NCBI GenBank assembly: GCA_040218735.1
Contig: JAVJQW010000047.1
Span: 79,934 to 143,933 of the forward strand
DNA: 64,000 nt
Source of the DNA: Deltaproteobacteria bacterium
GTDB taxonomy: Bacteria > Myxococcota > Kuafuiibacteriia > Kuafuiibacteriales > Kuafuiibacteriaceae
Direction: 5' to 3'
The notes beneath the pieces are model-generated. The model was not told the DNA's origin. It searched no databases and was given only the letters and a program-made list of their open reading frames with translations. How positions within the stretch are numbered: position 1 is the stretch's first letter; every line of letters begins with the position of its first letter. This document shows, piece by piece, positions 4,571-57,765 of this stretch. The translations under genes were made by a program, and so were the position numbers.

Positions 4571-5224
4571 TCAGCTGCAGCCCCGACCCCACGCGGCGAG
4601 GAGGATGTTGAGATCGACGGTGTCGACCGTGCCGTCCCCGTTGATGTCGCCGGCGCCGGAGCCGCCCCAGTTCGCGAGGAGGCCGTCGAGGTCGTCTTCG
4701 TCGACGCAGCCGTCGCCGTTCAGGTCCGGAGTCCCGCTCGCGAGGCATCCGGTGCCCCAGTTCGCGAGGACGATGTTCAGGTCCTGCACATTCACCGTGC
4801 CGTCTCCGTTGATGTCCGCCGGGTCCGGCGTCGTGCCCGTCGAGACACCCCACGCCGCGATGACGGCGTCGAGGTCGTCCTGGTCGACGCACCCGTCGCC
4901 GTTCACGTCGCCGTAGACGCCACAACCGGTGCCCCAGTTCGCGAGGACGATGTTCAAATCCTGCACGTCCACGGTGCCGTTGCCGTCGATGTCTTCGGCG
5001 AGGTTGCGACCGGTCGCGCCCCACGCCGCGAGGACCGCGTCGAGGTCGTCTTGATCGACGCAGCCGTCTCCGGTCGCGTCGCCGCGGACACCGGCGCTGG
5101 TGCCCGTGGAGACCTCGGACTCGGAGGTCTCCACGGCGGAGGTCTCGTTGCCCACCGGGCCGCCGCACGCGATCAAGAGGAAGGTGAGCGCGCTCGAGGC
5201 GCACGTGTGCACTGCTTTGTTCAT
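4571..5224 (-). CDS. lipoprotein made of six dockerin-like Ca-binding repeats (three modules)
   Basis: Lipobox LIAC; six D-x-[N/D/T]-G-[D/N]-G-x-V-x-x-x-D-L...W-G repeats; GGGAG RBS. Confidence 0.8.
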   Translation of the reverse strand: MNKAVHTCASSALTFLLIACGGPVGNETSAVETSESEVSTGTSAGVRGDATGDGCVDQDDLDAVLAAWGATGRNLAEDIDGNGTVDVQDLNIVLANWGTGCGVYGDVNGDGCVDQDDLDAVIAAWGVSTGTTPDPADINGDGTVNVQDLNIVLANWGTGCLASGTPDLNGDGCVDEDDLDGLLANWGGSGAGDINGDGTVDTVDLNILLAAWGRGCS

Positions 5225-5351
5225 TTCATGGCTCCCTAAGAGATGGATTGGGAGGCGCCTTGCCTCTCCTGGGGGTGCCAATGTGATGAGGACGCGGAGT
5301 TGATCCGCGGCGCGTGAAAAAAGTCAGCTTTCGGGGAGCTCGGACCGACCG

Positions 5352-7157
5352 TCAGAGCTTGTGCTCCATCAGGTTGCTCTGCAGGAGATTCGAAGCCTGA
5401 GCGCGCGTCATCTTCCCGTCAGCCACCAGCTTCTTCAGGAAAGCGTGTGGACCGATCGGGCTCTTGGTCGCCGACAGCCGCAACCGGTTGTAGTCCGCGC
5501 CATACGGGCCGGGGAGCGTCGAACAAGCCGCGCAGAAGTCACGCATCGTACCGATCAAGTCGGTCAACGTGATCTGCACGTCCTCCGCGCCCACGACGCC
5601 GAACCGCTCACTCGTCGCCGTCGGGTCGTTGCCGTCGAAGATCTCGCCGACGTGCTCGACGAAATTCGAAAGGTAGGTTGCGTTGTCCGTGATCCGCGCA
5701 TGCGCGATGTCGGCGTTGGCATCGAGCAAGTCACAGGTCAGCTCCCCCCAACGGAACTCGTCGTTCGAGGTGACGACGCCCTGCCCCCAACGATCCGCCG
5801 TCGCGGTCAGCGCCGCCAGCCGCCCGACACGTTTCGTCCAGTCCGAGGTGGCGCGCGAATCCTCCGTCACCCCACGCTTCCTCAAGTGGAACCGCACGTG
5901 GTGGAAGCCACATCCGTCGGACGCATCACACGACGCATCGGCGCTCCACAGGTTGCCCCGGAAGGGGACCGCGCCGCCGAGCGGGCGAGCCGCCCAACCC
6001 CGCCAGTCGCTACACGCGTTCAGAAGATACTGGCCCAGCCCGTTTGCGACGCCCTCCGTGTACTCGACGCCGAGCTCCGCATACTGCCCGGCGTAATGTC
6101 CCCAGTCGTACGATGTCCCGTCGGCGCGCATCATCGCGTTGCCAAACTCGTAGTGATAGAGCCGCGAGCCCGGCGCGAGGGAGCCGTGGATGCTGTGACC
6201 GAACTCGTGCGCCAGCGTATCGGTGTCGGAGAGGTGGCGGAGCGCCGGGCCGATACCACGCGTGGAGAACACGGCCTTGTCGGGTCGGAACAAAGACATC
6301 CAACCGCCACCCGCGCTGGCCCACTGCGTGTTGAACGCGATGAGGTAGGTCGGCTGGCCTCTGTACAGCTCGCTCTTCGGGAGCATCTTCTCGAACAGGT
6401 CCGGCATGTCGCGTGTGTTCGCCTCCAGGCGGTCGAACAGGGCGACCACGTTTGTGTAACCGTTCAGCACCTGGCGCATGTAGCCGAACCGATCGTGGGC
6501 GCTGCCCGCCGTGAAGACTTGGGTCCCGACGTTCAAGAACGCCCTCCCCTGGGCGTCCTTCACCGGCTCGAGCCCCACCCACCGAAAGACGAACGTCGGC
6601 GTCGCGTAGGGGACGCCGTCGTGTTCGAACGCCGGGACGAGACGATGCTCCGGCTCCGAGCCCAGCAGGTCAGCGGCGTGCGTGGAGGTCCATGCGGCGC
6701 GGATCCACCCAGGCTCGATCGGCGAGCGCGCGCTCGGGTGCCACGCCGGCGCCTCCAGCGCGACCCGCCCCTCGACCAGTACACGTTTGTCGCGACCACA
6801 CGACCGCGGGAGGCGGATGTCGAAGACGCCATCGCGATCGACGACGAACGTCCCGCCGCCGCAACGCCGCTTCGACGTGGGGAGGATCTCGTAGTACGTC
6901 AACGACAGGCGTCCCGGTAGCGGTCGCAACGAACCGACCGTCGCGGTGTCCGTCGTGACGAGGGCGCCAGTCGCAGCGCTGAAGCGCCGCTTGAAGGCGT
7001 GGCACTCCTTCCAACCGACACTCTGACTCCACACCGGCGAAACGCAGCCCGTGTCGTCCGGGAACGCGAGCCGACCGACGATCTGAACCTCGTACGTGCA
7101 GGCGGTCGACAGCCCGCAGAACAGAACGATCCACGCAAGAGCATCCGGGCGCTTCAT
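5352..7157 (-). CDS. lipoprotein, putative zinc metallopeptidase
   Basis: Lipobox STAC; HEFGH motif with downstream EGVA third-ligand-like motif; ATGA overlap with upstream gene. Confidence 0.6.
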   Translation of the reverse strand: MKRPDALAWIVLFCGLSTACTYEVQIVGRLAFPDDTGCVSPVWSQSVGWKECHAFKRRFSAATGALVTTDTATVGSLRPLPGRLSLTYYEILPTSKRRCGGGTFVVDRDGVFDIRLPRSCGRDKRVLVEGRVALEAPAWHPSARSPIEPGWIRAAWTSTHAADLLGSEPEHRLVPAFEHDGVPYATPTFVFRWVGLEPVKDAQGRAFLNVGTQVFTAGSAHDRFGYMRQVLNGYTNVVALFDRLEANTRDMPDLFEKMLPKSELYRGQPTYLIAFNTQWASAGGGWMSLFRPDKAVFSTRGIGPALRHLSDTDTLAHEFGHSIHGSLAPGSRLYHYEFGNAMMRADGTSYDWGHYAGQYAELGVEYTEGVANGLGQYLLNACSDWRGWAARPLGGAVPFRGNLWSADASCDASDGCGFHHVRFHLRKRGVTEDSRATSDWTKRVGRLAALTATADRWGQGVVTSNDEFRWGELTCDLLDANADIAHARITDNATYLSNFVEHVGEIFDGNDPTATSERFGVVGAEDVQITLTDLIGTMRDFCAACSTLPGPYGADYNRLRLSATKSPIGPHAFLKKLVADGKMTRAQASNLLQSNLMEHKL

Positions 7158-7777
7158 CGCGCGTCCTCCACCGAAAGCACCTCGCTCGGTCCTCTCAGGT
7201 GCTCCAGCCGGAAGGGGAGCTGCTTCGTCGCCTCGAGCTCTCTCCTCAGCCGTCGCGGATTCTTGCTGAGCGCCCGCCACTGCGCGGAGACGATCTCCAG
7301 CTCGGACGCGACGCGAACGCGGTCGGTGTCATCGATGACAAACGTCGCTTCGGTCCGTTCCGCACGCGAGCGCGGCCCCCAGACCTCGCAACGCACGCCC
7401 GCTCCGTAGCGTCCGAGGAGCACGAGCTCGATTGGAACGCGAACCTCGGTCGCCCCGGGGAGGCTCGACACCATCAGCTCGACGGCGCCGGAGCGTTCGC
7501 TGTCCGTGGCGAGGGCCCGGGCATGTCGCGCGCCGACCACCCGCGGCTCTGCGTCGAGTCCGAGGCACCGGACGCGCGCTGCGCCCTCGGCCAGCGCGAA
7601 ACGCAGCTCGAGCTGGAGAGGTTGCGCGCGGGTGAGCAGCTTGTCGTTCGAGGCGACGACGATGTGCGCGCCAAAGGGACCAGGTAAGTCTGAGGGAGGG
7701 GTTGCGGTAGCGACTTCAGGCCAACCGACCCACACGAGGAGGACGATCGAAACCAGCCGTGTGATCACGGCCGTCAA
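7154..7777 (-). CDS. hypothetical secreted protein
   Basis: Signal-peptide-like N-terminus (..EVATA); stop overlaps the next start. Confidence 0.5.
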   Translation of the reverse strand: MTAVITRLVSIVLLVWVGWPEVATATPPSDLPGPFGAHIVVASNDKLLTRAQPLQLELRFALAEGAARVRCLGLDAEPRVVGARHARALATDSERSGAVELMVSSLPGATEVRVPIELVLLGRYGAGVRCEVWGPRSRAERTEATFVIDDTDRVRVASELEIVSAQWRALSKNPRRLRRELEATKQLPFRLEHLRGPSEVLSVEDAR

Positions 7778-7828
7778 CTGTGCGCCGCGCTAGGATCTGC
7801 AGCATCCTCGCATCGACGTATGGCGCGC

Positions 7829-8515
7829 TCAGGGGCGATCGCGATCGCGGATCTCTTCGTTCGCGTGGAGTGACTTCGGCTCGAGGACGTCCTTCGGCAC
7901 CGGCACCTTCGACCACGCGTCCGTCATGAGATCGAAGAGCTCGCGCTTGCGCTCGATCGGCGTGTCGACCTTCCGCAGCTCCTCGTACCAGTCGCGCGTG
8001 TCCTTCTGGACCTTCAGCGACATCGCGGTGTGGAACTGCAGCTCCCACTCCATCCCCGACGGGTGTTTCATCACGCCGTTCACGCCGGAGTAGTTGTCGT
8101 CCTGCGGCCAGTAGTTCTTGAGCCGCACCACCGTGTGCCCCTGGCCCTCCAGCGCCTGGAGCACCTTGCGCACCGACTCGACGTAGTGCCCGGCGGGCTC
8201 GTCCTCGAAGCGCATCGTGTAGCGGAGGGTGTCGTCGAGCTCCATCTCGGCGATCGGGATCGACGGGTCCTCCAAGTGCTCCTTGTTGAGCTTGCGCTTC
8301 GTCGACTTCAGCGTCTTGAGGCGGTGCTCGATCTTGTACATCTCGCCGCCGAGCCCCTCCGCGAGGCTGACGAGCGCCGGCGTGACCGTCGGCTCGAGCT
8401 TGGCGGCGCGGTCGACGAGCTGCTGCGCTCGCTGATCGATCGTGACGGTCGGCGTCGTCTTGCACGCGACGAGCGCGAGCAGCAGAGGCGCCAAATATAT
8501 CGAATGCATTCTCAT
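7829..8515 (-). CDS. lipoprotein with RelA/SpoT-type synthetase domain (exported alarmone synthetase / nucleotide 3'-pyrophosphokinase-like)
   Basis: Lipobox LVAC; RLKT.KS..RK, D.LRYT, KNYW, YSGVN and ELQFHT motifs. Confidence 0.7.
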   Translation of the reverse strand: MRMHSIYLAPLLLALVACKTTPTVTIDQRAQQLVDRAAKLEPTVTPALVSLAEGLGGEMYKIEHRLKTLKSTKRKLNKEHLEDPSIPIAEMELDDTLRYTMRFEDEPAGHYVESVRKVLQALEGQGHTVVRLKNYWPQDDNYSGVNGVMKHPSGMEWELQFHTAMSLKVQKDTRDWYEELRKVDTPIERKRELFDLMTDAWSKVPVPKDVLEPKSLHANEEIRDRDRP

Positions 8516-9696
8516 GAGTAGATCAGGTGCGGTCGGCGGCGGTCACGGAAGCGGGCTTCGTCCTCGGCGAACGACCGGATGATCTCGTCCGTCGTGGCAC
8601 CTGCCTCCAGGGCACGTCGCGGTCCCTCGGATCCGAACAGAAGATCGATCGCGAGTCGATCGGAGATGAACTCGTAGCGCTCGCGCCGCCAGTCGAACCC
8701 CTCCGACTGCCGCATCGCCGCGCGCATCAACGCCACCGTGAGGCGGACCGAGCGCGCCGCCCAGCGATCCGTGACGTGGACCTGCACGGCGCCGCAGTGT
8801 TTCCCGCCGTGTTTCTGGAACATCGGCTTGATCACCGTCGGCCGCAGGACGAACCCCGGGCCGACGTCCGAACGCGCCTCCGCCGCCCACGCCTCGCCGT
8901 CGAGGTAGGGCGCACCACACAGCTCGAACGGCCGCGTCGTCCCACGCCCCTCGCTCAGGTTCGTACCTTCGAGGATGCACTGCCCGGGGTAGATCCACGC
9001 GGCGTCGTTGGTCGGCATGTTCGGCGACGGCATCACCCACGGCAGGCCCGTCGCCTCGAAGTCCATGTCGCGACGCCACCCCTCCATCCGCACGATCTCG
9101 AAGTCGACGTCCCAGCCCTCCTCGGCCGCGACGAGGTTCGCGTACTCGCCGATCGTGAGCCCGTGCCGCATCGCGAGATCGAACGCACCGACGAAGGACC
9201 GGAACGCATCTTCGACCGCCGGCCCCTCGACGTCCTCCTCGCGCCCGCCGAGCGGGTTCGGGCGGTCGAGCACCAACACCCGCACCCCGGCCTCCCCCGC
9301 GACGCGCATCGCGTACGCCATCGTCGCGGCGTAGGTGTAGTAGCGCGCGCCGACGTCCTGCAGATCGATCACCAGCACGTCGAGCCCGGCGAGCATCTCG
9401 ACGGTCGGCGCGAGCGATGCCTCGTCGTCGCCATACAGTGAATAGATCTTGGCCCCGGTGCGTGCGTCCACGGGGGTCTCTTCGACCACCGTCTCCATGT
9501 CCTGCGCCGCCCCCGTGATCCCGTGCTCGGGACCGAACAGCGCGACGAGGTTCAGCTCCGCTGCCACCATCAGGTCGACGACGTGCGTCAACGTGCGGTC
9601 GACCGAGGGCGCGTGCGCGAGCAGGCCGACCTTGGCGCCTTTCAGACGAGCGAAGGACTCCTGCACCAGCACGTCGAGCCCGGTTCGAACGGTCAT
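8512..9696 (-). CDS. namZ: exo-beta-N-acetylmuramidase NamZ family (DUF1343)
   Basis: LFGPEHG, DLQDVGARYYTY, LDRPNP, RHG.TIGE, PSPNMP and EGTNLSEGRGT.RPFE motifs. Confidence 0.88.
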   Translation of the reverse strand: MTVRTGLDVLVQESFARLKGAKVGLLAHAPSVDRTLTHVVDLMVAAELNLVALFGPEHGITGAAQDMETVVEETPVDARTGAKIYSLYGDDEASLAPTVEMLAGLDVLVIDLQDVGARYYTYAATMAYAMRVAGEAGVRVLVLDRPNPLGGREEDVEGPAVEDAFRSFVGAFDLAMRHGLTIGEYANLVAAEEGWDVDFEIVRMEGWRRDMDFEATGLPWVMPSPNMPTNDAAWIYPGQCILEGTNLSEGRGTTRPFELCGAPYLDGEAWAAEARSDVGPGFVLRPTVIKPMFQKHGGKHCGAVQVHVTDRWAARSVRLTVALMRAAMRQSEGFDWRRERYEFISDRLAIDLLFGSEGPRRALEAGATTDEIIRSFAEDEARFRDRRRPHLIYS

Positions 9697-9756
9697 CGGC
9701 ACGGCTGTAACACGACCGCTTTTCGCGGGCGACATGCGCTAGACTCGACGCGTCGA

Positions 9757-12183
9757 ATGCGCGTTCCCTCCTGCGTCGCGTTACTCGCGCTGACGGCGTG
9801 TACGTCGGTCGACCCGCTGCCGTTCGAGGTGGACGGCGTGCCGGGCGACCTCGTCGTGGTCGTGACCGTCGCGGACGACGTCGTCACCTCGCGTCGCGTG
9901 ACACGCTGGGAGGACGCCCCGATCCTCACGGTCGCGGACGACGAGGCGCTGCACTTGTCGCTCATCCGCGCGGGGGGCCTCGTCGACGCGGCGGGTGTCC
10001 CGCTCGCCGACGAACGACTCGACGCCGTCGCCGTCCGCCCCGCCGAGCGCGGCGCGTGTCGCGGCGCCACCACGACGGCGCCGCAGATCGTGTACCCCGG
10101 CGACGTCTGCCCGCTGCCGCCGTTCGCGGAGCACTTCGCCGATCCCCCCGACGCTCCGCGCCCCGCGCTCTCGCTGGTGTGGCCGGGGTCGACGACCTGC
10201 GACCTCGACACCAACGATCCACCGACGTCCGTGACCTGGTCGCTCCAAGCCCCCGACCCGAGCTTCTGGCCGCACGCGGTCTACGCCGTCGTGCCCGGTA
10301 CGAACACGATCGGCGCGTTCGGGGAGCACCACGCGATCGCCGTCCCGAGCGGCGCCACCGCGACGCCGCCGTTCGTGAACAGCGTCATCTCCGCGGTCGG
10401 GGTCGCGGACGGCTTCGTCGTCGCGTCGCACAACCCCGCGCGTGTGTTGCGCACCGACGTCACCCACTTCGATCCCAACCTCGGCGTCCTGCGCGGACCG
10501 CGCGACGTCGGCTTCCGCCCCGAGCGCATGCGCCGTCACGGCGACGCGCTGATCGTGGCCGGCGAGGGCCCGCAGCTGCGCCAACCGAAGGCACGCATCT
10601 GCGACACGTCGCTCGACACGTGCAGCAACCTGAACCCGGACGAGCTCGGGTTCCTCGGACGCGCGATGCTCGACGCGACCCCCCTCGCCGACGGCGCGCT
10701 CCTCGCGATCGGCGACCACGGGCTCCTCGTCGTCGAACGCATCCCCGGCGCCGACGAGGTCCTCGACGTCACCACCGATCTCCTCGAGGGCAGCCAGGCG
10801 CGCGGCACGTTGTCCACGACGACCGGCACCGTCGCGTGGAACGCGTTCGCCAAGGTCTTCGCAGGGCGCGACGAGGCGTTCGTGCGCGACTACCGGATGC
10901 TGCGCGTCGCGCAGCTCGCGGACGGACGCGTGTTGTTCTGCGCGAGCGCCGCCGACACGCTCGTCCTGACGGGAGACATCGGCCGACGCCACGCCCTCGC
11001 CCGCCCCGACCCACTGACGATCGTGGCGCAGGTCCCCGGTCGTTGCAGCGGCGTCTCCGTGGACGGCGAAGCGCTGCGTGTCACCACCGACGTCGGCGCG
11101 AACGTCGTCGTCGGCGTCGACGTCGAAACGACACCTCGAGTGGTGCTCCCGAACGTCGGCGTCCCGGCGTACCTCGACACCCTCGAAGACGTCACGATCG
11201 CGGCGCGCGCGGACGGCGCGGTGTTCGAGCGCAGCGGCGAAACCTTCGCGCCACGGTACGTCCCCGCGATGGCTCTGCCCGGAGCGCCGGTCGAGATCTT
11301 CGAGGCGTTCGCGCTCTTCGCCGACGGCGCGATCCAGAACTTCGACGGAGTCGATCGCACGCTCGTCACCACCGCCACGGTCGTCGCCGCCGCCGAGAGC
11401 GCCGACGGCTTCGTCATCGTGCTCGCGGACGACGACGGCCTCGCGCTGCGCCGCACGGACGGCACCGACTGGACCTCCGCGCCCGAACCCTTGGCGGTCG
11501 ACGACGTACGCGATCTCGCCGTCGTCGCCTCCGGCGCGGTGGTCCTCGCCGACGCCCGCGGACGGCTCCACCTGCACGACGGGACGACCCGCACGATCGC
11601 CATCGACTGGGACGACCCGCTCACCGAGGTAGTCGAAACCGCACCCGGCCAACCGTTCGGGTGCGGCTTCAGCACGCACCCCGACGACGTGCTGCGCGCG
11701 GTCGCCGCGTGGGGCGGGACGGCCTGGGCTGCGGGCTGCGACGGCGCGCTCCTCCGCGTCGCCGCGTACGCGGAGCCGCCGACCGCGACACGCGTCGCGT
11801 TCGTCTCGGATGCGCTCGGCACACGTTCGTTCTCTGCTGCGCTCGCCACCTGCCCTGACGAGCTCCTGCTCGGCACCGGGACCGACGGAAGCGACGACCC
11901 GCGCGTGTGGCGCTTCGCGGACTGCGAAGGTGTCCTCTGCGGGACCGACGCCGACCGCTTCATGCGGGCGCCGTCTGCGAGCCCCGCCGGCCTCGGCGGT
12001 GTCCTCGACCTCGCGCTTCGCGACGGACGAACACTCGTCGTGCACGAACGCGGCGTACACTTCCTCGGGAGCGACGCGCTGTTCCGCATCGAAGACCGGC
12101 CGTGGCGCGGCGGCTACCTCCCCGACGGCACCGCCGTGTTCACGACGTTCAACGGACGCTCGTTCTTCGGGCGGTCGGAGTAG
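9757..12183 (+). CDS. large hypothetical lipoprotein (beta-rich, possibly propeller)
   Basis: Lipobox LTAC; about 808 aa with host-like codon usage. Confidence 0.6.
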   Translation: MRVPSCVALLALTACTSVDPLPFEVDGVPGDLVVVVTVADDVVTSRRVTRWEDAPILTVADDEALHLSLIRAGGLVDAAGVPLADERLDAVAVRPAERGACRGATTTAPQIVYPGDVCPLPPFAEHFADPPDAPRPALSLVWPGSTTCDLDTNDPPTSVTWSLQAPDPSFWPHAVYAVVPGTNTIGAFGEHHAIAVPSGATATPPFVNSVISAVGVADGFVVASHNPARVLRTDVTHFDPNLGVLRGPRDVGFRPERMRRHGDALIVAGEGPQLRQPKARICDTSLDTCSNLNPDELGFLGRAMLDATPLADGALLAIGDHGLLVVERIPGADEVLDVTTDLLEGSQARGTLSTTTGTVAWNAFAKVFAGRDEAFVRDYRMLRVAQLADGRVLFCASAADTLVLTGDIGRRHALARPDPLTIVAQVPGRCSGVSVDGEALRVTTDVGANVVVGVDVETTPRVVLPNVGVPAYLDTLEDVTIAARADGAVFERSGETFAPRYVPAMALPGAPVEIFEAFALFADGAIQNFDGVDRTLVTTATVVAAAESADGFVIVLADDDGLALRRTDGTDWTSAPEPLAVDDVRDLAVVASGAVVLADARGRLHLHDGTTRTIAIDWDDPLTEVVETAPGQPFGCGFSTHPDDVLRAVAAWGGTAWAAGCDGALLRVAAYAEPPTATRVAFVSDALGTRSFSAALATCPDELLLGTGTDGSDDPRVWRFADCEGVLCGTDADRFMRAPSASPAGLGGVLDLALRDGRTLVVHERGVHFLGSDALFRIEDRPWRGGYLPDGTAVFTTFNGRSFFGRSE

Positions 12184-20556: not shown

Positions 20557-21963
20557 TCATTCGTCGGCGAGCGCGGCCGAGATCGCGGCGGTATGGACCA
20601 CGCGGACCGCCACGCCGTGCTCGGCTGCGAGGCGTGCGACGTCGTCGTACTCGGGCGCGACGAGCGGCAAACCGCGACGCGGCGAGACCTTCACGCGCAC
20701 GGCGCCGTACGGGGTGTCGACCGACTTCACGGTGCGCGGCGCCAGGTGTCGCTGCACTTCGTAGGCGCGAACGCCCAGCGTCGTGCTGTGTTCGAGGAAC
20801 GCTTCGACGATCGCGTCCTGCTCCGCACGCCGGACGAGCGCGTGCACCGTGACGCCGGCGCGGCCCTTCTTCATGAAGGCGGTCGTGGTCCACACGTCGT
20901 AGGCGCCCGCCGCGAACAGCGCGGCCTCGAGCGGTGCGAAGTGTTCGGGCGACATGTCGTCGATGTTGGCTTCGACGACGAGGTCCTCCTGCGTGGTCGT
21001 CGCGGCGACGCGGGCCGTGCCGACGAGCGCACGTACGATGTTGGGGCGGTCGGGCCAGCTCTTGTGTCCGGCGCCCACGCCGACGGCCGTGATGGTCATC
21101 GACGGAATCGAACCCCAGCGATCGGCGAGCGCGGTGAGGAGCGCGGCGCCGGTCGGTGTCACGGTCTCGCCCTTCAGCGATGTCTCGGTGGTCGGGCAGC
21201 CCCGGAGGAGGTGGAGCGTCGCGGGGCCGGGGAGCGGAATGGGCCCGTGCGCGCCGCGCGTCAGGCCGCGACCGAGCGGCGCGGGCGACACGACGACCTC
21301 GTCGACCTCGAGCGCGGCGAACGCGGTGGCCGCGCCGACGATGTCGGCGATGGCGTCGTCGGCGCCGACCTCGTGGAACTCGACTTCATCGATCGGGACG
21401 CCGTGGGCCTCGGACTCCGCTTCGGCGAGGCGGCGGAACGCGTCGAGCGCGATCGACTTCGCGCGTTCGTCGAGCTCGGCCTTCGTGATCTGCTTCTTGA
21501 TGTCGCGGTACGGCCGGTGGTGCGCGTGGTCGTGGTGCGCCGAGGTCACCGGCGGGGTCGGCACCGCGCCGTGGCGAACGGTCGTCGCGGGCCCGTCGGC
21601 GTTCTGCGCGACGGCGGCGTCGCCCTTGGCGCGCGATGGCCCGGGATCGAAGTGCGGCGGGTGGTGATGGTGATGGTGGGCGTCGTGGGGATCGGACGTG
21701 CGATCCGCCGTGTGGATGTGCGGCGCCCCTTCGGCCGCGTGGCTGTCACCGAGCACGCCGTCGATGTAGACCTCGATCTGTTTCGCGCGAAGGCCGGCCG
21801 GGTGGACCTCGTTCTCCTGGAGCGTGACGTTCTCGAGGCCCATCGCGTCGATGGCGGCGCGCACACCTTCGATGGGGGCCCCGGCGTCGACGAGGGCGGA
21901 GAGGAGCATGTCCCCGGCGGCGCCGCCGACGAGGTCGAGGAAGAGGACGCGGCGTTCGCTCAT
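20557..21963 (-). CDS. larC: nickel-pincer cofactor Ni insertase LarC
   Basis: G.AGDM.L.AL, His-rich linker, FHEVG..D, TPTGAA, N.DD, MKK.R and PEYDD motifs. Confidence 0.92.
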   Translation of the reverse strand: MSERRVLFLDLVGGAAGDMLLSALVDAGAPIEGVRAAIDAMGLENVTLQENEVHPAGLRAKQIEVYIDGVLGDSHAAEGAPHIHTADRTSDPHDAHHHHHHPPHFDPGPSRAKGDAAVAQNADGPATTVRHGAVPTPPVTSAHHDHAHHRPYRDIKKQITKAELDERAKSIALDAFRRLAEAESEAHGVPIDEVEFHEVGADDAIADIVGAATAFAALEVDEVVVSPAPLGRGLTRGAHGPIPLPGPATLHLLRGCPTTETSLKGETVTPTGAALLTALADRWGSIPSMTITAVGVGAGHKSWPDRPNIVRALVGTARVAATTTQEDLVVEANIDDMSPEHFAPLEAALFAAGAYDVWTTTAFMKKGRAGVTVHALVRRAEQDAIVEAFLEHSTTLGVRAYEVQRHLAPRTVKSVDTPYGAVRVKVSPRRGLPLVAPEYDDVARLAAEHGVAVRVVHTAAISAALADE

Positions 21964-22733
21964 TTGTCGGTCCTGCGGCGGTTGATCAGCGACGCGGCGT
22001 AGCCGGCGCCGAAGCCGTTGTCGATGTTCACGACGGTGATGCCCGCGCTGCAGCTCGAAAGCATGCCGAGGAGCGCGGCGATGCCGCCGAGGCTCGCGCC
22101 GAAGCCGACGCTGGTCGGGACGGCGATGACGGGGCGCGAGATCATGCCCTTCACGACGCTCGGGAGCGCCCCCTCCATGCCCGCGACGACGATGACGACC
22201 TCGGCGTCTTCGAGACGCTCGCGCGTGGGGAGGAGCCGGTGCAGACCCGCGACGCCGACGTCGGTGATGCGCTCGACGACGTTGCCGAGGAGGTGCGCGG
22301 TCTGGGCCGCCTCCTCGGCGACGGGGAGGTCGGAGGTGCCGGCGGCGACGACGAGGATCTTTCCGCGGCCGGCGTCGGCCATCGCTTCGCCGACGACGAA
22401 CAGACGCGACGTCGGGTCGTACTTCAGGTCCGCGCGGTGCTCGGGGGCGAGGAGGGACTCGGCGGTCTCGGCCTTTGCGGTGTCGACGCGCGTGACGATC
22501 GCGGTCTGGCCGTTCTTTCGAATGGAATCGACGATGTGGGCGATCTGCTCCGGGGTCTTGCCCGGGCCGTAGACGACCTCGGGGTAGCCCGTGCGTACGT
22601 GCCGGTGGTGGTCGATGCGCGCGAAGCCGAGGTCCTCGAAGGGGAGGCGCGACAGGCGCGTGCTCGCATCGTCGACGGACACATCACCGGCTTTGACGGC
22701 GGTGAGGAGCTTCGTCAGGTCCTCGGGGCTCAT
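21960..22733 (-). CDS. larB: nickel-pincer cofactor biosynthesis carboxylase LarB
   Basis: AGTSDLPVAEEA, DVGVAGLHRL, AGMEGALPSV and VVNIDNGFGA motifs. Confidence 0.93.
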   Translation of the reverse strand: MSPEDLTKLLTAVKAGDVSVDDASTRLSRLPFEDLGFARIDHHRHVRTGYPEVVYGPGKTPEQIAHIVDSIRKNGQTAIVTRVDTAKAETAESLLAPEHRADLKYDPTSRLFVVGEAMADAGRGKILVVAAGTSDLPVAEEAAQTAHLLGNVVERITDVGVAGLHRLLPTRERLEDAEVVIVVAGMEGALPSVVKGMISRPVIAVPTSVGFGASLGGIAALLGMLSSCSAGITVVNIDNGFGAGYAASLINRRRTDK

Positions 22734-24884: not shown

Positions 24885-27800
24885 TCAATGGCCCTCGTCC
24901 TGCGCTGGCGCGTTCTGCCAGTCCTTCCACCACTGCGCGTTGTCGGGGTGCTCCTCGACGAGCTTCGCCCACACCTCGTTCACGCGGACGAGCAGCGCCC
25001 GGTCGCTCCGTGCGCGCGCCAACGCGCCGGCCGCGTGGGCCCAGTCCGCCCGAGCCTGTCCGGCCTCGCGGTCGATGCCGAGGAGCTCCTCCCCTTCCTC
25101 GTGGGCCTGCGCGAACCAGTCGTCCGCTTCGTCGAAACGCCCCACCGCCTCGAGCGCACGCGCGTAGAGCAGCGAGACGCGCACCGCCATCGGCGCGCGG
25201 TCCGGGTAAGGCTTCGGTGCCCGCGCGTGGATCGCGACGGGCTCCAACAACACCAACGCGGCGGTGAGATCTCCGTTTGCGAGCGCGGCCGCGCCCAGAC
25301 GCCATGCGGTACGCGCGACGTCGTGGGTGAAGCCCTCCGGCTCGACCCGAGTCGTGATCGCGACCGACTCCATCGCGGCCTCGTGCGCGAGCCGCCGGCG
25401 GCCGTGCTCCACGAAGAGCTCGGCCTGCCGCAGCCGCACGTTGACGAGGTGTTGTTTGTACAGCTCGACGTCGCCGAAGCGCTCGATCGATCTGCGCGCC
25501 ATCGACTCGGCGATTTCGAGCGCCTTGGCCGCCTCGTCCACGTTCCCCGCGCCGGTGTGCACGTCCGCAAGATCCACCGCGCGCCACAGCTCGGCCCGGA
25601 GCATCCTGAGCCCGTCACCCTTCGTTCGGTGAAGATTGCAGCCGAGCGCGTGGTAGGCGATCGCCTCCGCGGTCTCGCCGAGCCGTCGGTGCAGACGGAC
25701 ACGCATCAACAACAAGTGCGACAGGCGCCGATCGTCGGCGCCCGCTCGCCGCGCAACTTCGGTTGCGCGATCCAACGCCGCGAGCCCCTTGGTCGTGTTG
25801 CCGAGGTCGCGGTGGTAGCGAACCAGATTCAGGAGCTGGTCCGTGTACGTCTGCGCGATCTCGGTGTCGGTGGTACGTGCGGCGTACAGCTTCGAGAACC
25901 GCTCGACCGAGTCCTCCACCGCGGCGCGGACCTGCGCGACGTCGGCGCGACCGATCCAGATGAACTCGTCGATGACGTCGGCGAGCCGAAGCATCGGCTC
26001 GCGATCCTCGGGCGCAGCATCGACCAGCGCGATCGCACGCCGGTACGCGTCGCGTATCAGGCGATTGGCCTCGTCCACTTCGCCGTGTTGATTCGCGAGG
26101 CTCGCGCGACGAACGATCGCGTCGACCTTCAGACCCTCCACACGATCCCCGTCGATCCCCTCGACGAGATCCGCGCTCGACTGCGCCAGCGTACGGCGGA
26201 TGTCCTCCCGATCCTCTGGGCTCGCGCCCGCCTCCGCGACCAAGCGCTTCGCGACGCGCATCGCGCGCTCCTCGACCTCGGCCTGCTGCGCGCGTTCCAC
26301 GACGACCCAGGTGAGGAGCGCCGCGACCCCCGACGCCACCGCCGCCAACATGACCGCGCGCCGCCGACGCTGCGACGCCGCCTCGTCCTCCGCGCGGCGG
26401 CGGGCCCGCTCCGACGCGGCGAGGTACGCGTGCGCAGCGTCCGAGGCATCCTCGGACGTGGACAGGTAGGCGAGCTGTCGGCCGCGCGCGAGCCCCTCGT
26501 CGGGGCGACCGGCGGCGGCCCACGCCACCGCGGCCGACTCGAGATCCTGCCGCGCGCGCAGCGTATGTCGCCGCTCCGCGAGCCACCCGCGGAGGCGCGG
26601 CCAATCCGTGCACAGGCGCTCGTGCGCGAGCTCGACGACCGGTGTGCTCCCTTCGACACGCCCCACGACGAGGCCGGCCGGTCCCGCCCCGAGCGCGTTC
26701 AACACCCGGCGCGCGAGGTCGTCTCCCCCCGCGAGGCGCTCCGCCTCCTCGCGGGGACGGAGGCGCCGCGTGACGGCGTCGCCGTCGAGATCCACGAGGC
26801 CGATCAGCACGCGCCTCGCGCGCCGCTCTCCCTCCTCGCCGAGGTCGTGGAGCACACGATCCGCGGCCTCGACGAACGCGACCGTCGGACCGCCCATCGC
26901 CTCGTAGTCCTCGACGGAACAGCGGCCGTCGCTGGTGGTCCAGAGGCGATGCAGCGCGTACGCGATCATCGGGAGCGACGCACCGCGCGCCGCCTCGGCG
27001 ACGAAGCGCGCGACCGTGTCCTCGGGGAGCGGCCACCCCGCGAGCAGCGCGGGTGCGGTGACCGCGCGACGCACGCCGTCGGTGCGGAGCGGGCCGAGCT
27101 CGAAGCGCTCCGCGTCGGCGTTCATCCGCTCCGCAAAGCCCGGGACGAGCGCGAGGCGCCCGAGGAGATCGGAGCGCGCCGAGGTCACGAGCCAGGCCCC
27201 GTTCGCCTCGTCGAGGTACGCCGCAATCGCCGAGACGAATTCGCCGAGCCCCTCCGGCGCGCCGCCGAGTGTCACGACCTCTTCGAGCTGATCGATGACG
27301 AGGATCGTCGGTCGCCGCGCGAGGACCTCCCGCAGCGCGGCCACGGGATCGGCGCCCGGCCGGATCACCACCGGCGCGTCCGTCACCACGCCCAGCGCAC
27401 CGTGCGCGAGCAGCGGCAGCACCCCCGCCGCGACGAAGGACGACTTGCCGACTCCGCTCGGCCCCTCCACCGCGAGCCAGCGACGCCCCGACGCCGCGAG
27501 CCGCTCGAACGCGAGCGCGACCTCGGCGTCGCGACCGAAGAACGAAGAAGCGTCAGCCGCCGTGAACGCACGAAGGCCGGGGAACGGACACGCCGGTGCT
27601 GCGTCGTGGTTGCGCGCGGGGCGCTGCGACACCGCGCGCAGCGTACGCGCTACGACCAGCGCCGACTCCGGCCGTTCATCCGGCGCGATCGCGAGGCAGC
27701 GCCCGATCAGCTCGTCGAGCACGGGTGAGGCCTGGGGCCGCCGAGCGATCAGCCGCGCGGGACGCGGAGCTCCGGTGGGATCGACGTCGTCGGCGAAGGG

Positions 27801-28526
27801 GCGTGCACCGGTGAGGAGCTCGTAGGCGACGACGCCGAGCGCGAACACGTCGGTGCGCGCGTCCTGCGGCTCACCGCGCCACTGCTCCGGCGCCATGTAC
27901 CCGGGGGTGCCCGCGATGGGTGTCTGCAGCGCACGACCGAGGGAGTGCGCGAGGCCGAAGTCGAGCACCCGCGCGTGCCCCGCTTCGTCGACGAGGACGT
28001 TCTCGGGTTTGAGGTCGCGGTGAATCACGCCGCGCGCGTGTGCATAGGCGAGCGCCTCCGCCACATCTGCGAGCGCGGCGAGGATGCGATCCGCGGTCGC
28101 GACGGAGCGCAACGGAACACCGTCGACCCACTCGCTCACGATGTACGGCGTGCTGATCAGCTCCGCGCCCGAATCGTCGAGGGACTCGACCGCGGAGACG
28201 TCGTAGACCGTCACGGTCAGCGGGTGCCGAAGCGCAGCGGAGGTCTGCGCCTCCCGCGCGAAGTCCAACGCGACGCTCACCGGCACTCGGCTGAACCGGG
28301 CGCCGAAGGTCTGCGGCCCCATCAACTTGATGGCGACGTCGCGCTCCAGCCGAAGGTCGCGCGCGCGATACACGACGCCGAACCCGCCGCGTCCGATGAG
28401 CGCCTCGATCACGTAGCGTTCGTCCAACGTCCGCCCGGCGAGGCGTTCGATCACCCGCACCTGCGCGCGCTCCGCGAAGAAGTCGAGGAAGGCGTCCGGC
28501 AGCGCCTCTTCCTCGAGCGACGTCAC
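24885..28526 (-). CDS. Ser/Thr kinase fused to nSTAND1-type NTPase, TM helix and TPR-like region
   Basis: HRDLKPEN/DFG kinase; PFPGL..F...D...FFGR, GPSGVGKSS, IDQLEE and LAHE NTPase motifs. Confidence 0.85.
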   Translation of the reverse strand: MTSLEEEALPDAFLDFFAERAQVRVIERLAGRTLDERYVIEALIGRGGFGVVYRARDLRLERDVAIKLMGPQTFGARFSRVPVSVALDFAREAQTSAALRHPLTVTVYDVSAVESLDDSGAELISTPYIVSEWVDGVPLRSVATADRILAALADVAEALAYAHARGVIHRDLKPENVLVDEAGHARVLDFGLAHSLGRALQTPIAGTPGYMAPEQWRGEPQDARTDVFALGVVAYELLTGARPFADDVDPTGAPRPARLIARRPQASPVLDELIGRCLAIAPDERPESALVVARTLRAVSQRPARNHDAAPACPFPGLRAFTAADASSFFGRDAEVALAFERLAASGRRWLAVEGPSGVGKSSFVAAGVLPLLAHGALGVVTDAPVVIRPGADPVAALREVLARRPTILVIDQLEEVVTLGGAPEGLGEFVSAIAAYLDEANGAWLVTSARSDLLGRLALVPGFAERMNADAERFELGPLRTDGVRRAVTAPALLAGWPLPEDTVARFVAEAARGASLPMIAYALHRLWTTSDGRCSVEDYEAMGGPTVAFVEAADRVLHDLGEEGERRARRVLIGLVDLDGDAVTRRLRPREEAERLAGGDDLARRVLNALGAGPAGLVVGRVEGSTPVVELAHERLCTDWPRLRGWLAERRHTLRARQDLESAAVAWAAAGRPDEGLARGRQLAYLSTSEDASDAAHAYLAASERARRRAEDEAASQRRRRAVMLAAVASGVAALLTWVVVERAQQAEVEERAMRVAKRLVAEAGASPEDREDIRRTLAQSSADLVEGIDGDRVEGLKVDAIVRRASLANQHGEVDEANRLIRDAYRRAIALVDAAPEDREPMLRLADVIDEFIWIGRADVAQVRAAVEDSVERFSKLYAARTTDTEIAQTYTDQLLNLVRYHRDLGNTTKGLAALDRATEVARRAGADDRRLSHLLLMRVRLHRRLGETAEAIAYHALGCNLHRTKGDGLRMLRAELWRAVDLADVHTGAGNVDEAAKALEIAESMARRSIERFGDVELYKQHLVNVRLRQAELFVEHGRRRLAHEAAMESVAITTRVEPEGFTHDVARTAWRLGAAALANGDLTAALVLLEPVAIHARAPKPYPDRAPMAVRVSLLYARALEAVGRFDEADDWFAQAHEEGEELLGIDREAGQARADWAHAAGALARARSDRALLVRVNEVWAKLVEEHPDNAQWWKDWQNAPAQDEGH

Positions 28527-29080
28527 GGCGTCGAGAGGTCCTCGAGCCCCGAGGCCCGCGCGTGCTCGCGGAGGCGCTGCGTCAACCGCGAGAGTCGCTT
28601 CCGCACGGCGGCGGGCGTGACGGGCGCGTCGGGCGTCGAGAGGCGCTCCGCGATCTCGGGGTGCTGCAGCCCCTCCTGGAACCGGAGCACGAGGAGCGCG
28701 CCGTCTTCGTCTTCGAGCTGTTCGAGGATCGCGGCGACGCCCTCACGGAGGCGATGGATCCGATCCGACTCGCGGAGCTGCGTCGAAGGGCCGGGCCCCT
28801 CGCCGCCGAGCACCGACGCGTCCCGGGTGCGGAGCGCGACCTCGCGTTGGCTGATGCGCGCGCGTCGTTGGAGGAGGCGATGCGCTTCGTTGCGGGCGAT
28901 CTGGAAGACCCACGCGCGGAGGGAACGATCCGAGTCGCCGCGGTAGGTAGCGAAGCCGGTGAGGATGCGTTCGCTCGCGGCGGACCAGGCGTCGTCGACG
29001 TCGGCGTCGTCGCGGAGGAGCCGCCCGAGCCACGCCGTCACTTCGGCGCGGTGCCGCGTGATGACCTGGGCGCCGTCCAC
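28523..29080 (-). CDS. ECF sigma factor
   Basis: W.FQIARN region 2; LRF.EGL...EIA...AVRKRLSR region 4; GTGA overlap with the kinase gene. Confidence 0.8.
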   Translation of the reverse strand: MDGAQVITRHRAEVTAWLGRLLRDDADVDDAWSAASERILTGFATYRGDSDRSLRAWVFQIARNEAHRLLQRRARISQREVALRTRDASVLGGEGPGPSTQLRESDRIHRLREGVAAILEQLEDEDGALLVLRFQEGLQHPEIAERLSTPDAPVTPAAVRKRLSRLTQRLREHARASGLEDLSTP

Positions 29081-53512: not shown

Positions 53513-54175
53513 ATGTCACCGAGAACGATCAAAATGGACGACGAGGTCTACTCGTACTTCCTCGACATTTCGGTTCGAGAGCACGACGTGCTGCGAAGGC
53601 TCCGCGAGGAGACGCAGGCGATGGAGCACGCGCGGATGCAGATCGCGCCGGAGCAGGGGCAATTCATGCGCCTGCTGGTAGAGCTGCTCGACGCCCGGCG
53701 AACGATCGAGGTGGGTACGTTCACGGGTTACAGCGCGCTCGCGACGGCGCTTGCGCTGCCGGAGGACGGGAAGGTGATCGCGTGTGACGTGAGTGAGGAG
53801 TGGACTTCGATCGGGCGTCGGTACTGGGAGGAAGCGGGGGTGGCTTCGAAGATCGACCTGCGGATTGGGCCGGCGAACGACACCTTGGATTCGCTCATCG
53901 CAGAGGGCGGCGCCGGTGAGTTCGACTTCATGTTCATCGACGCGGATAAATCGGGGTACCCGAGCTACTACGAGAAGGGTCTGGCTTTGCTACGCAAGGG
54001 TGGGTTGATCGGAATCGATAATGCGCTGTGGGGAGGTTCGATTGCCGACGCCTCCGACACGGGCGCAGACACCGAGGCGATTCGTGAGATCGATCGGCGC
54101 GTGCGCGATGACGACCGCGTCACTTCGAGCCTCGTCCCCATCGGGGATGGGTTGTTGCTCGCCCGAAAACGCTGA
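53513..54175 (+). CDS. class I SAM O-methyltransferase (COMT/CCoAOMT-like)
   Basis: [20 protein letters not shown] and PIGDG motifs. Confidence 0.92.
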
Positions 54176-54233
54176 GTTTCCGCAACGAATTTCAAACCCT
54201 TTCCTGTTGCATTCCAGGCTGGCCCCCCGCCAA

Positions 54234-54250
54234 CCTGAACACATGAACAC
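54234..54250. promoter_or_regulatory. putative Myxococcus-type LexA box at the intI promoter
   Basis: CCTGAACACATGAACAC matches 15/17 positions of the reverse complement of the M. xanthus LexA consensus as recalled; TTGCAT-N18-CAACCT promoter candidate overlaps it. Confidence 0.5.
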
Positions 54251-55295
54251 GATGCCTCCCCTGGCCCGCGGCAAGCGCGAGAGCGCCCCCACCGCGGCTC
54301 CGCTCCCGGACGACTCGGATCGCCCGCTCATGAAACAAGTGCGCGGAGCGATCCGCGTACGTCACTTCAGTCGACGAACAGAGGACGCGTACACCCGGTG
54401 GATTCGACGTTTCATTCGCTTCTCGGGCATGCGCCACCCCCGAGAGCTCGGGGCGGAGGACGTCGAGAGGTTCCTCACGTCGTTGGCGGAGGACCGTGGC
54501 GTCGCGGCGTCGACGCAGAACCAGGCGCTGTCGGCGCTCCTGTTCCTCTACGGCGAAGTGCTTCGGGTCGACCTGCCGTGGATGCACGAGATCGTCCGCG
54601 CCAAGCGGCCGCTCCGTTTGCCTGTGGTGCTGACGCGTTCGGAGGTGGAGCGAGTCCTGAAGGAGCTCCCGGATCCGGCGCGTCTGGCGTCGCACCTGAT
54701 GTATGGCGCGGGGCTCCGCTTGCTCGAGTGTCTGCGTTTGCGTGTGAAGGACCTCGACTTCGAGCGAAGCACGTTGGTGATTCGAGAGGGCAAGGGCGCG
54801 CGCGATCGGCGCACGGTCTTGCCGATGTCCTTGGCTGCGCCCCTTCGAAACCACCTGGTCACGGTGCAGGCGCAGCATGACGTCGACCTGGAGCGAGGTG
54901 CGGGTCATGTGGAGCTCCCAACGGCGCTCGCGAAGAAGTTCCCGAATGCCTCGCGCGACTGGAAGTGGCAGTGGGTCTTCCCGGCCACGCGAACTTACCG
55001 CCACCGAGAGTCCGGCGAGCACCGTCGCCACCACCTCCACGAGACGGTCGTCCAGCGCGCAGTCACCGCCGCCGGCCGAGCGGCCCACCTGGAAAAGCGC
55101 GTCACCTGCCACACCTTCCGCCACAGCTTCGCCACCCACCTCCTCGAGGACGGCTACGACATCCGCACCGTCCAGGAGCTCCTCGGCCACCGAGACGTCC
55201 GCACCACGATGATCTACACCCACGTCCTCAACCGAGGCCCCGGCGCCGTCAAGAGCCCCGCCGACCGCCTCGCCCCCTTCGAAAGCAAGGAGTAG
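54243..55295 (+). CDS. intI: integron integrase (tyrosine recombinase)
   Basis: S.STQNQAL.AL.FLY, YGAGLR..E, GKG..DR, IntI-specific patch (L.KK.P.A...W.WQWVFP...RRHH), [14 protein letters not shown]....TT.IY; start could be 54252 or 54330. Confidence 0.96.
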
Positions 55296-55963: not shown

Positions 55964-56027
55964 GTCCAACATGATGATGAAGACGGACAGGGGCTTCGCC
56001 CCTGCCGCTTATCATCGGGTGTTGGAC
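55964..56027 (+). repeat. attC 1
   Basis: GTCCAAC...hairpin with TTC loop...GTTGGAC. Confidence 0.92.
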
Positions 56028-56112
56028 GGACCAGAGGACGGATGTTGACAGCCCGACCTCGCTGCGCCGATCCTGTCCTGTCGCTCCGATTGGGCGACGA
56101 AAGGCAGGCCCA

Positions 56113-56688
56113 GTGTTCGTCTCAGATTCCAACGGAGCAATCTTGCACACCGGCGGCGGACTCTTCGATCTCCACCGTGTCTATCGAGACGCAGGCGTGG
56201 CGCTTCTATCGGATCTCCAAGTCCGAGTGCGAAACTCTGCTCCCGGAGTGCCGCGCCAGATCGTGACCGCGTTTAGCGGCCAGCAGTGCATTCCTATCCT
56301 CTTCCTCATGAGGCATTCGCTCGAACTGCAGCTCAAGATGATTCTCGCGCTCCTCGACGAACTCGATGGGGTCTCTCCGAAGAAGCGCGGCGAGCATCTC
56401 CTCAGCCTATACTGGGGCGAGGTGCAGCGACGCGCCGCCAGACACTTTCGAGACGACGAGCTCAAGAAGTACCTTTCACCCGAGTTCGAGTACATTACTG
56501 AGCAGTTGCGACCGCTCACGGACATCGACGACCGCGGCACCACCTTCCGGTACGAGGACCACGACCAGGCTATGCCATCCCTTGATATCGATGTGTTTGC
56601 AGACAGTTCAGCGGAGGTCTTCCAGACCCTCGACTACCTTGTCGATGCACTAGGGACATTTTGTGACCACAAGGCCGGACGCATATAG
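56113..56688 (+). CDS. cassette 2: HEPN-like domain protein
   Basis: P..F..RH.LEL.LK...H.L...W...D....FRY pattern. Confidence 0.6.
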   Translation: MFVSDSNGAILHTGGGLFDLHRVYRDAGVALLSDLQVRVRNSAPGVPRQIVTAFSGQQCIPILFLMRHSLELQLKMILALLDELDGVSPKKRGEHLLSLYWGEVQRRAARHFRDDELKKYLSPEFEYITEQLRPLTDIDDRGTTFRYEDHDQAMPSLDIDVFADSSAEVFQTLDYLVDALGTFCDHKAGRI

Positions 56689-56699
56689 TGACGCGGGCC

Positions 56700-56761
56700 G
56701 TCCAACAGGATGATGAAGACGGACGGGGCTTCGCCCCGCCGCTTATCATCGGGTGTTGGAT
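56700..56761 (+). repeat. attC 2
   Basis: GTCCAAC...GTTGGAT. Confidence 0.92.
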
Positions 56762-56862
56762 GGACCTGGCTATGGAGGGGATCGTGCCCCGACCTGCGTC
56801 AAGGTACAGGTGGGGCTGTTCCGAGTCTTCGCTTCGAGACGCTTCCGCGGTAACCAGGCACA

Positions 56863-57303
56863 GTGCGCCCGCTACTGCTCCTCGTGCTTCCCACGTTCCT
56901 CCTATGCTGCCAGATACCAACGAAGACTCAAGCCGTCGTTCTTAAGTTCGACCCTCCCGCAAGCGACCCGGTGTTTCGCGACTGTACGATCACGCTCAAC
57001 TGGACGGCGGTGGAACTCCTAAACCAATGCGGACCGCCAATCGACTCCTATCGCAGCGCGAAGGGAAGCGACGTCGTTTGTGTAGCCTACAAGAGCTACG
57101 CGCACTCGATCGCAGCGTCATCGGCGGTGGCTCCCTACTACGTCGTCTGCCTACGGCCCTGGTCGTACCCACGGAAATCCACGGAGACCACTCCGTTCTT
57201 GATACCTCTGATTCCGCCCGAGCAACTCCGCAACTACGTCGTCGAGTCGGTCTACGGGCTGCAGTCGATCCCGGGTACATTGACCTCCTCGACCCCGCGC
57301 TGA
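56863..57303 (+). CDS. cassette 3: putative lipoprotein
   Basis: Hydrophobic signal ending LLCC; stop just before attC. Confidence 0.55.
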   Translation: MRPLLLLVLPTFLLCCQIPTKTQAVVLKFDPPASDPVFRDCTITLNWTAVELLNQCGPPIDSYRSAKGSDVVCVAYKSYAHSIAASSAVAPYYVVCLRPWSYPRKSTETTPFLIPLIPPEQLRNYVVESVYGLQSIPGTLTSSTPR

Positions 57304-57317
57304 GATGATGCGCGGCC

Positions 57318-57381
57318 ATCCAACATGATGATGAAGACGGACGGGGGCTTCGCCCCCGCCGCTTATCATCGGGTGTTGGAT
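57318..57381 (+). repeat. attC 3
   Basis: ATCCAAC...GTTGGAT. Confidence 0.92.
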
Positions 57382-57733: not shown

Positions 57734-57739
57734 TTGGGC
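57677..57739 (+). repeat. attC 4
   Basis: ATCCAAC...TAC loop...GTTGGGC. Confidence 0.9.
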
Positions 57740-57765
57740 GGACGAAGCGCGTGAGGAGTCGATCG

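Follow-up and report, generated by a model that had tools for sequence, protein, structure and literature searches.

What kind of enzyme does a bacterium place behind a lipoprotein signal when the domain that follows resembles an alarmone synthetase, and on whose nucleotides might it act? These questions are raised by a gene on the minus strand of a 64,000-nucleotide stretch of DNA from a Deltaproteobacteria bacterium (assembly GCA_040218735.1, contig JAVJQW010000047.1; the whole stretch is called the window, and all positions refer to it). The gene, at 7829..8515, is a complete coding sequence of 228 residues plus stop codon. A first-pass annotation of the DNA had described its product as a RelA/SpoT-type synthetase domain, standing alone and preceded by a lipoprotein signal, and had proposed that it is a toxin delivered to other cells. 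Homology and fold support the former description: we are confident, short of certainty, that the gene encodes a lipoprotein-type small alarmone synthetase of the exported alarmone synthetase (EAS) family, that is, an exported and lipid-tethered pyrophosphokinase of RelA/SpoT type that consists of one domain and has kept its active site intact.

The GC content of the three codon positions is 0.64, 0.37 and 0.94 in a window of 68.3% GC, and owing to the high value at third positions (GC3) we regard the open reading frame (ORF) as a real gene. Its product begins with MRMHSIYLAPLLLALVA (residues 1-17; 8465..8515, minus strand), followed by CKTTPT. This N-terminus contains one basic residue (M1-R2), a ten-residue hydrophobic core (L8-A17) and, at its end, the lipobox L15-V16-A17-C18, precisely the LVA-C that had been noticed earlier. 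Cys18 at position +1, the predicted lipidation site (codon TGC, 8462-8464), and Lys19 at the +2 sorting position (AAG) together occupy 8459..8464 of the minus strand; both codons, and those of the ELQFHT block, were verified on the DNA. Called from this pattern and from conservation among homologues, the signal ending at the 8465/8464 boundary is a predicted lipoprotein (type II) signal.

Searches by sequence and by structure led to the same relative. Among PDB sequences, phmmer returned a sole match, 8vx3 (listed as 'SaSAS'; E = 2e-16), and a profile of 45 aligned sequences, comprising the window protein and 44 of the 48 homologues found by a word-index search, matched 8vx3 at E = 2.9e-31 and the toxin Tas1 at E = 1.1e-3. 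The entry 8vx3 represents SaEAS, an exported alarmone synthetase from Streptomyces albidoflavus and a member of the EAS family described by Ahmad et al. (mBio, November 2025; PMC12691689). An AlphaFold2 model built on this 45-sequence alignment reached a mean predicted local distance difference test score (pLDDT) of 93, with values of 93-99 across the SYNTH blocks, and a predicted template-modelling score (pTM) of 0.85. Foldseek matched this model to 29 PDB entries at E ≤ 0.001, the top ones being 8vx3, 6ox6, 7ztb, 5ded and 6ewz. The leading match was again 8vx3 (E = 1.7e-13, template-modelling (TM) scores of 0.73/0.81, 30% identity), and it was followed by Tas1 (6ox6), CapRel (7ztb), Bacillus subtilis SAS1/RelQ, RelP, Rel, SpoT and RelA. 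The fold of the modelled protein is the RelA/SpoT synthetase fold; the match on which the first-pass annotation had made its proposal depend is found by Foldseek, though the Pfam model misses the protein. The kinship it had named with an exported Streptomyces enzyme is likewise borne out, SaEAS being the nearest characterised relative by phmmer, profile and Foldseek. Tas1, its other point of comparison, is indeed a relative, but one more distant in both structure and sequence.

The catalytic SYNTH (RelA/SpoT nucleotidyltransferase) domain, delimited by the model and Foldseek, spans residues ~26-212 (7880..8440, minus strand, as are all motifs below). All of the motifs named in the earlier annotation were found: RLKTLKSTKRK (65-75), DDTLRY (94-99), KNYW (133-136), YSGVN (142-146) and ELQFHT (158-163). 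The first contains the R-x-K-x3-S-x2-R-K motif, which binds the triphosphate of ATP in RelA/SpoT homologue (RSH) synthetases; here it reads R65-x-K67-x3-S71-x2-R74-K75 (8291..8323) and aligns with RLKSPDSLKRK of SaEAS. Invariant in the 45 aligned sequences were K67, S71, R74, K75, D95, R98, K133, N134, Y135, W136, N146, E158, Q160 and T163, while R65 was conserved in at least 90% of them. Six active-site residues have been named for SaEAS, namely D121, R124, K154, N169, E182 and Q184 (PMC12691689). To place them, the 8vx3 chain number was raised by 35, a conversion verified at the engineered L83M and D121A, the latter being the mutation that inactivates SaEAS (PMC12691689). Five of the six are identical and invariant: D121 and R124 correspond to D95 and R98 in the block D95-T-L-R98 (8222..8233), N169 to N146 in R131-L-K133-N-Y-W136 ... 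Y142-S-G-V-N146 (8078..8125), and E182 and Q184 to E158 and Q160 in E158-L-Q160-F-H-T163 (8027..8044). The sixth, K154, aligns with R131, a conservative change, and the invariant K133 lies two residues further on in the same strand (residues 128-134). Judged by these residues, the protein looks catalytically competent.

Beyond SaEAS, the domain recurs at the ends of much larger proteins. NCBIfam NF041399 (XopAD/skwp) matched residues 18-211 over profile positions 1932-2127 of 2133 (E = 3.8e-32), with a score of 110.7 bits, where the family cut-off is 2000; the part common to XopAD/skwp and the window protein is therefore the end domain alone, and a full-length match with SKWP repeats was not obtained. 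The XopAD/skwp (RipS) type III effectors, whose XopAD type is counted among the EAS (PMC12691689), thus share their C-terminal domain with the window protein. Unlike them, it has no SKWP repeats, and the Pfam-scanned ORFs of the window provide no type III secretion context. In PHROGs the only matches were end domains of MuF-type head proteins, in other words phage-fused synthetases, and a phage origin of the gene is not indicated by them. No second copy of the EAS gene was found within the 64-kb window.

Subsequently, we asked whether the lipobox belongs to a lineage or to this single reading frame. One homologue (P0001) is 97% identical to the window protein. The lipobox cysteine is aligned in 41 of the 45 sequences, and the other four start at or past that column and look N-terminally incomplete; this count was taken from the alignment column, a strict lipobox pattern having caught 30 of 45. 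Among the 41 cysteine-bearing sequences, position -1 is occupied by Ala (24), Gly (13) or Ser (4), and position +2 by Gly (12), Cys (6), Lys, Ser and Gln (5 each), Ala and Pro (3 each), Arg (1) or Thr (1). Lysine at +2 is found in the window protein and its three closest homologues. An exhaustive search of 1.84 billion cluster representatives yielded 3237 clusters when the cut-off was E ≤ 1e-3, 1736 of them reaching E ≤ 1e-10 and 49 reaching E ≤ 1e-30; among the best 150 of the 3237, 80 were longer than 330 residues, and 23 were short sequences in which a crude pattern recognised a lipobox. From the SYNTH domain of 189 of 195 sequences (six covering fewer than 130 profile positions were dropped), a midpoint-rooted FastTree phylogeny (LG+gamma) placed the window protein in one clade of 80 tips with a support of 0.998, together with 63 of the 64 sequences that bear a lipobox; clusters at 90% and at 50% identity are mixed in the set, and its tips are therefore not independent. 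The same clade also takes in 14 short sequences without a recognised lipobox and three long ones. Because the cysteine is kept in 41 of 45 sequences and the lipobox-bearing proteins fall, with one exception, into one clade, the predicted lipid anchor is a conserved clade trait and no accident of a single ORF.

Two of the long relatives nearest to the window protein, P0052 (488 residues) and P0066 (620 residues) with 46-49% identity, carry PD40 (TolB-like beta-propeller) repeats ahead of the synthetase domain, and P0066 starts with a hydrophobic, cysteine-containing N-terminus; they are a fused form of the predicted envelope-located EAS clade. Of 18 long relatives scanned with Pfam, six bear WXG100-like, MuF, deaminase or ADP-ribosyltransferase modules and seven gave no match. 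A scan of species-representative genomes recovered 29 EAS loci, all from metagenome-assembled genomes (MAGs). As labelled, 16 of these belong to Myxococcota groups (Polyangiaceae, Polyangia, Myxococcales, Kofleriaceae, Myxococcota), four to 'Deltaproteobacteria', five to Planctomycetota and two to Acidobacteriota-type bacteria, with two unclassified. Judging from these labels, lipobox forms of EAS appear to occur mainly in uncultured Myxococcota. The host, termed a likely predator in the first-pass annotation, is by its best matches also placed among uncultured Myxococcota, predation being conjecture.

How does this lipobox clade relate to the published family? Secreted by way of Sec, SaEAS produces (p)ppGpp and (p)ppApp at ~10^5 per minute; without signal peptides, SaEAS and the Vibrio enzymes VpEAS and RelV kill or arrest E. 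coli, while full-length VpEAS and RelV are harmless, and all three genes are isolated loci reported to lack immunity genes (PMC12691689). The idea of protection by export, which the first-pass annotation had offered for the window gene, has been demonstrated experimentally, as a logic, for these three enzymes. Some 600 EAS have been tied to several export routes (Sec, the WXG/LXG type VII secretion system, XopAD, MuF, DUF4157 and Rhs/PAAR), with 252 sequences classed as 'Sec signal', and the extracytoplasmic role of SaEAS and VpEAS was left open by the authors (PMC12691689). Three members of the lipobox clade (A0A7C5N718, A0A661PED1 and A0A7W0Q5U9) are contained in supplementary sequence files 4 and 5 of that article, and A0A7C5N718 reads identical to our homologue P0016. 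Its main text makes no mention of lipoproteins, of myxobacteria or Deltaproteobacteria, or of the outer membrane, and the available parts of its supplements, the jackhmmer output (file 2) aside, hold neither myxococcotal names nor the word 'lipoprotein'. The kind of enzyme is thus already known; what is undescribed in the available text of PMC12691689 is the conservation of the predicted lipid anchor and the clade centred on Myxococcota, a statement that extends to this article and not to the wider literature, which was not searched.

Compared with SaEAS, the window protein has the same architecture, a single SYNTH domain of ~200 residues behind a Sec-type signal at an isolated locus with no immunity gene, at 30% identity and TM scores of 0.73-0.81, with identical active-site D, R, N, E and Q. 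It differs in having Arg at the place of K154, and in its signal: SaEAS comes from a Gram-positive bacterium, has a type I signal and is released to the medium, whereas the window protein carries a type II signal in a diderm. Furthermore, the activity and kinetics of SaEAS were measured, whereas the window protein is known from its sequence and model. VpEAS and RelV, which are periplasmic and (p)ppGpp-specific, resemble it as signal-bearing small alarmone synthetases of Gram-negative bacteria without an immunity gene; RelV, compared here by description and not by sequence, has no reported lipid anchor. With Tas1/Apk1, the type VI (p)ppApp synthetase toxin (6ox6), it shares the fold and active-site layout (Foldseek E = 2.5e-5), but Tas1 possesses a PAAR/Rhs-type delivery part and the immunity protein Tis1, neither of which is seen in the window protein or its locus.

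The gene's surroundings were then analysed for a partner. Immediately upstream on the minus strand (8512..9735) lies a homologue of the NamZ/DUF1343 exo-beta-N-acetylmuramidase (Pfam NamZ_N, 1.3e-74; NamZ_C, 1.3e-44), the best named matches of which come from Myxococcota MAGs. The ATG of the EAS gene overlaps the NamZ stop codon by 4 nucleotides (ATGA). Only one of the 29 loci (L001) has a NamZ-like sequence beside the EAS gene, in the form of a 70-residue C-terminal piece; in the loci sampled, the NamZ-EAS link is context only and is not conserved in the family. L001 is the closest locus (83% identity), on a low-coverage MAG contig, and its positions 661-1893 and 1923-2576 hold the NamZ tail and the synthetase; the last 70 NamZ residues are in frame with an ORF whose start is unrelated to NamZ, reflecting either a rearrangement or a chimeric assembly. 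Separately, the synthetase homologues P0004 and P0005 and the NamZ homologues P0198 and P0199 come from contigs of the same sizes (83,548 and 45,951 bases), and the pairing may be kept in the nearest relatives.

Directly downstream, an orphan ORF of 207 residues (7154-7777, minus strand) has a hydrophobic N-terminus and a GC3 of 0.80. It gave no family match, had no relative but itself among 5.8 billion proteins and has no counterpart in any of the 29 loci; the frame is either a gene specific to the lineage or no gene at all. As a candidate immunity gene, for which its place directly downstream would be SitI-like, it was rejected for being an orphan missing from every one of these loci. Among the 36 Pfam-scanned ORFs of the window (positions 342-55295, EAS included), no hydrolase, HD-domain or immunity-like gene was found, and a PADLOC search for defence systems gave no matches. 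When six window neighbours were compared with the 29 loci by tblastn, no relatives emerged except the NamZ piece at L001, and an all-against-all BLAST of 237 neighbouring ORFs from the 29 loci and the window revealed no family beyond small sets of close relatives; local synteny was confined to such relatives (L017/L018/L020/L027, L024/L025 and L016/L029). Since no neighbour is conserved across the 29 related loci, we conclude that the enzyme has no immunity gene, and the earlier statement that no hydrolase or immunity gene is adjacent is upheld. Like the Sec-type EAS loci, the locus is isolated, in the window as across the 29 loci. A promoter and terminator scan of 6800-10400 returned no promoter; the two terminator-like sites that it did return overlap each other within the NamZ gene, a yield not above that expected of shuffled sequences.

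Several observations weigh against an exported, active EAS enzyme. The window protein has no match to Pfam RelA_SpoT (PF04607; gathering cut-off 27 bits) even at E ≤ 10, and the same model recognises only seven of the 45 homologues, weakly (best E = 0.0026). A published active-site lysine, K154, is replaced by arginine. The product of the NamZ gene has no signal peptide visible by eye, and its overlap with the EAS gene is unexplained by our model. Finally, substrate nucleotides are presumably rare outside the cytoplasm. We retain an exported, lipid-tethered EAS-family synthetase as the preferred reading, and weigh three alternatives against it.

The strongest of these, essentially the proposal of the first-pass annotation, is that the protein is an outer-membrane lipoprotein toxin, carried by outer-membrane vesicles (OMVs) or outer-membrane exchange into prey or non-kin, which it would kill by converting ATP or GTP into (p)ppApp or (p)ppGpp. 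In its favour, EAS enzymes stripped of their signal kill E. coli (PMC12691689), related domains end long proteins with the modules listed above in six of 18 scanned cases, most clade members carry at +2 a residue (G, S, C or Q) that would allow sorting to the outer membrane, and the best matches place the host in the Myxococcota, a group in which M. xanthus delivers SitA lipoprotein toxins by outer-membrane exchange (PMC5562445). Like SitA, the window protein puts a lipoprotein signal before a domain predicted to be toxic in the cytoplasm, in a myxobacterial host. The resemblance, drawn by description, ends there: SitA proteins are ~60 kDa, share a common N-terminal region, have no +2 Lys (as noted for SitA1) and, in the account available, always have a cognate sitI (PMC5562445), whereas the window gene has no sitI directly downstream, its product does carry +2 Lys, and no N-terminal delivery region precedes the catalytic domain, the first helix of which starts at residue 26, shortly after Cys18. 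At the EAS loci, moreover, no neighbour is conserved that might play the part of sitI, and a toxin handed to siblings without immunity would kill kin. Five of the 29 loci are from Planctomycetota and two from Acidobacteriota-type bacteria; outer-membrane exchange is not known to occur in either group.

The sorting residue bears on the same question. In M. xanthus, +2 Lys occurs in eight of 12 inner-membrane lipoproteins, and a signal with +2 Lys put mCherry in the inner membrane, while FibA continued to be exported when a +2 Lys was added to it (PMC3222651). The lysine of the window protein and its three closest homologues is thus the inner-membrane mark of that species and, if the M. xanthus rule applies, suggests by analogy that the inner membrane anchors the window EAS. 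Together, the +2 Lys, the missing delivery region and the missing immunity gene lower the delivery model for the window protein, which we consider improbable. They do no more than lower it, because the +2 rule was derived from a myxobacterium that is distant and is in part a correlation, and because most clade members have no +2 Lys.

Very improbable, in our estimate, is that the protein pyrophosphorylates the 3' end of tRNA, as do the toxSAS enzymes CapRel, FaRel2 and PhRel2, and not free nucleotides. CapRel (7ztb, 9erv) was indeed among the Foldseek matches, at E ~3e-5, but the protein is far more like SaEAS, which makes (p)ppGpp and (p)ppApp; tRNA is lacking outside the cytoplasm; the EAS loci show neither an antitoxin gene nor a fused antitoxin domain and no conserved small neighbour; and PADLOC gave no match. 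Weakest of all, and scarcely credible, is an ordinary cytoplasmic small alarmone synthetase whose true start lies further downstream or whose signal is unused: no Shine-Dalgarno sequence is recognisable by eye before the ATG, but the signal region with its cysteine is kept in 41 of 45 homologues and across the whole clade, past M3 the frame has no Met before M59, which lies within the folded domain, the ATGA overlap agrees with translational coupling at M1, and EAS relatives are toxic in the cytoplasm (PMC12691689).

Returning to the exported, lipid-tethered synthetase, the following course may be proposed. The precursor would be exported unfolded through Sec, lipid-modified at Cys18 and cut by signal peptidase II, after which a very short linker would hold the mature enzyme to an extracytoplasmic membrane face; in the AlphaFold2 model, ~7 residues separate Cys18 from the first catalytic-domain helix. 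Export would keep a potentially lethal enzyme from the ATP and GTP pools of its producer, so that no immunity gene would be needed. On meeting ATP and a purine nucleotide acceptor, the enzyme would transfer pyrophosphate to the 3'-OH, forming (p)ppGpp and/or (p)ppApp; the sequence does not reveal which acceptor is preferred. Most likely, the enzyme would act on nucleotides arriving in the periplasm or at the cell surface, for example from lysed neighbours; its injection into other cells is less likely.

Elsewhere in the window, several genes deserve mention in their own right. On the minus strand at 5352-7280, a large ORF contains an internal HEFGH metalloprotease-like motif (sub-threshold Peptidase_M3 match, E = 0.0016) and, well inside the listed frame, a possible lipoprotein start (MKRPDALAWIVLFCGLSTAC). 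At 4571-5281 (minus), a small protein of dockerin/EF-hand-like calcium-binding repeats (Dockerin_1, 6.6e-13) has a lipoprotein-like N-terminus (…LLIACGG). Adjoining genes at 20557-22733 (minus) encode a protein for nickel insertion (Ni_insertion, 5e-125) and one akin to AIR carboxylase, a pair that we take to resemble the LarC/LarB cofactor maturation genes. At 24885-28526 (minus), a 1213-residue Ser/Thr kinase is fused to a novel STAND NTPase (nSTAND1, 4.7e-73), and the gene upstream of it, with a 4-nucleotide overlap, encodes an ECF-type (extracytoplasmic function) sigma factor (28523-29080, minus). An FHA-sigma54 activator, Ser/Thr kinases and the nSTAND1 kinase in the window presumably fit a host within the Myxococcota. 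Finally, a tyrosine recombinase gene at 54021-55295 (Phage_integrase, 1.2e-34, with an N-terminal SAM-like domain) is followed, over 56000-64000, by a drop in GC from ~0.70 to 0.60-0.62; the two probably mark the boundary of a mobile element that has integrated. A search of the window for tRNA genes found none.

With no Pfam domain in the window protein and homologues labelled 'hypothetical protein', the clade is invisible to routine annotation. Tentatively, and with more doubt than belief, we propose that the lipobox clade is a functionally distinct, membrane-tethered form of EAS at the envelope of lytic, possibly predatory bacteria, which would turn ATP and GTP that escape from lysed neighbours into extracellular or periplasmic alarmones as a signal of lysis or prey; members without +2 Lys might alternatively be OMV-borne toxins that need no immunity. 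EAS were recognised only in 2025, and the predicted lipid-anchored clade would add to the family a location and an ecological setting that are both new. Found in diderms, mostly Myxococcota, it may offer a handle on where these enzymes find their substrates and on whom they act.

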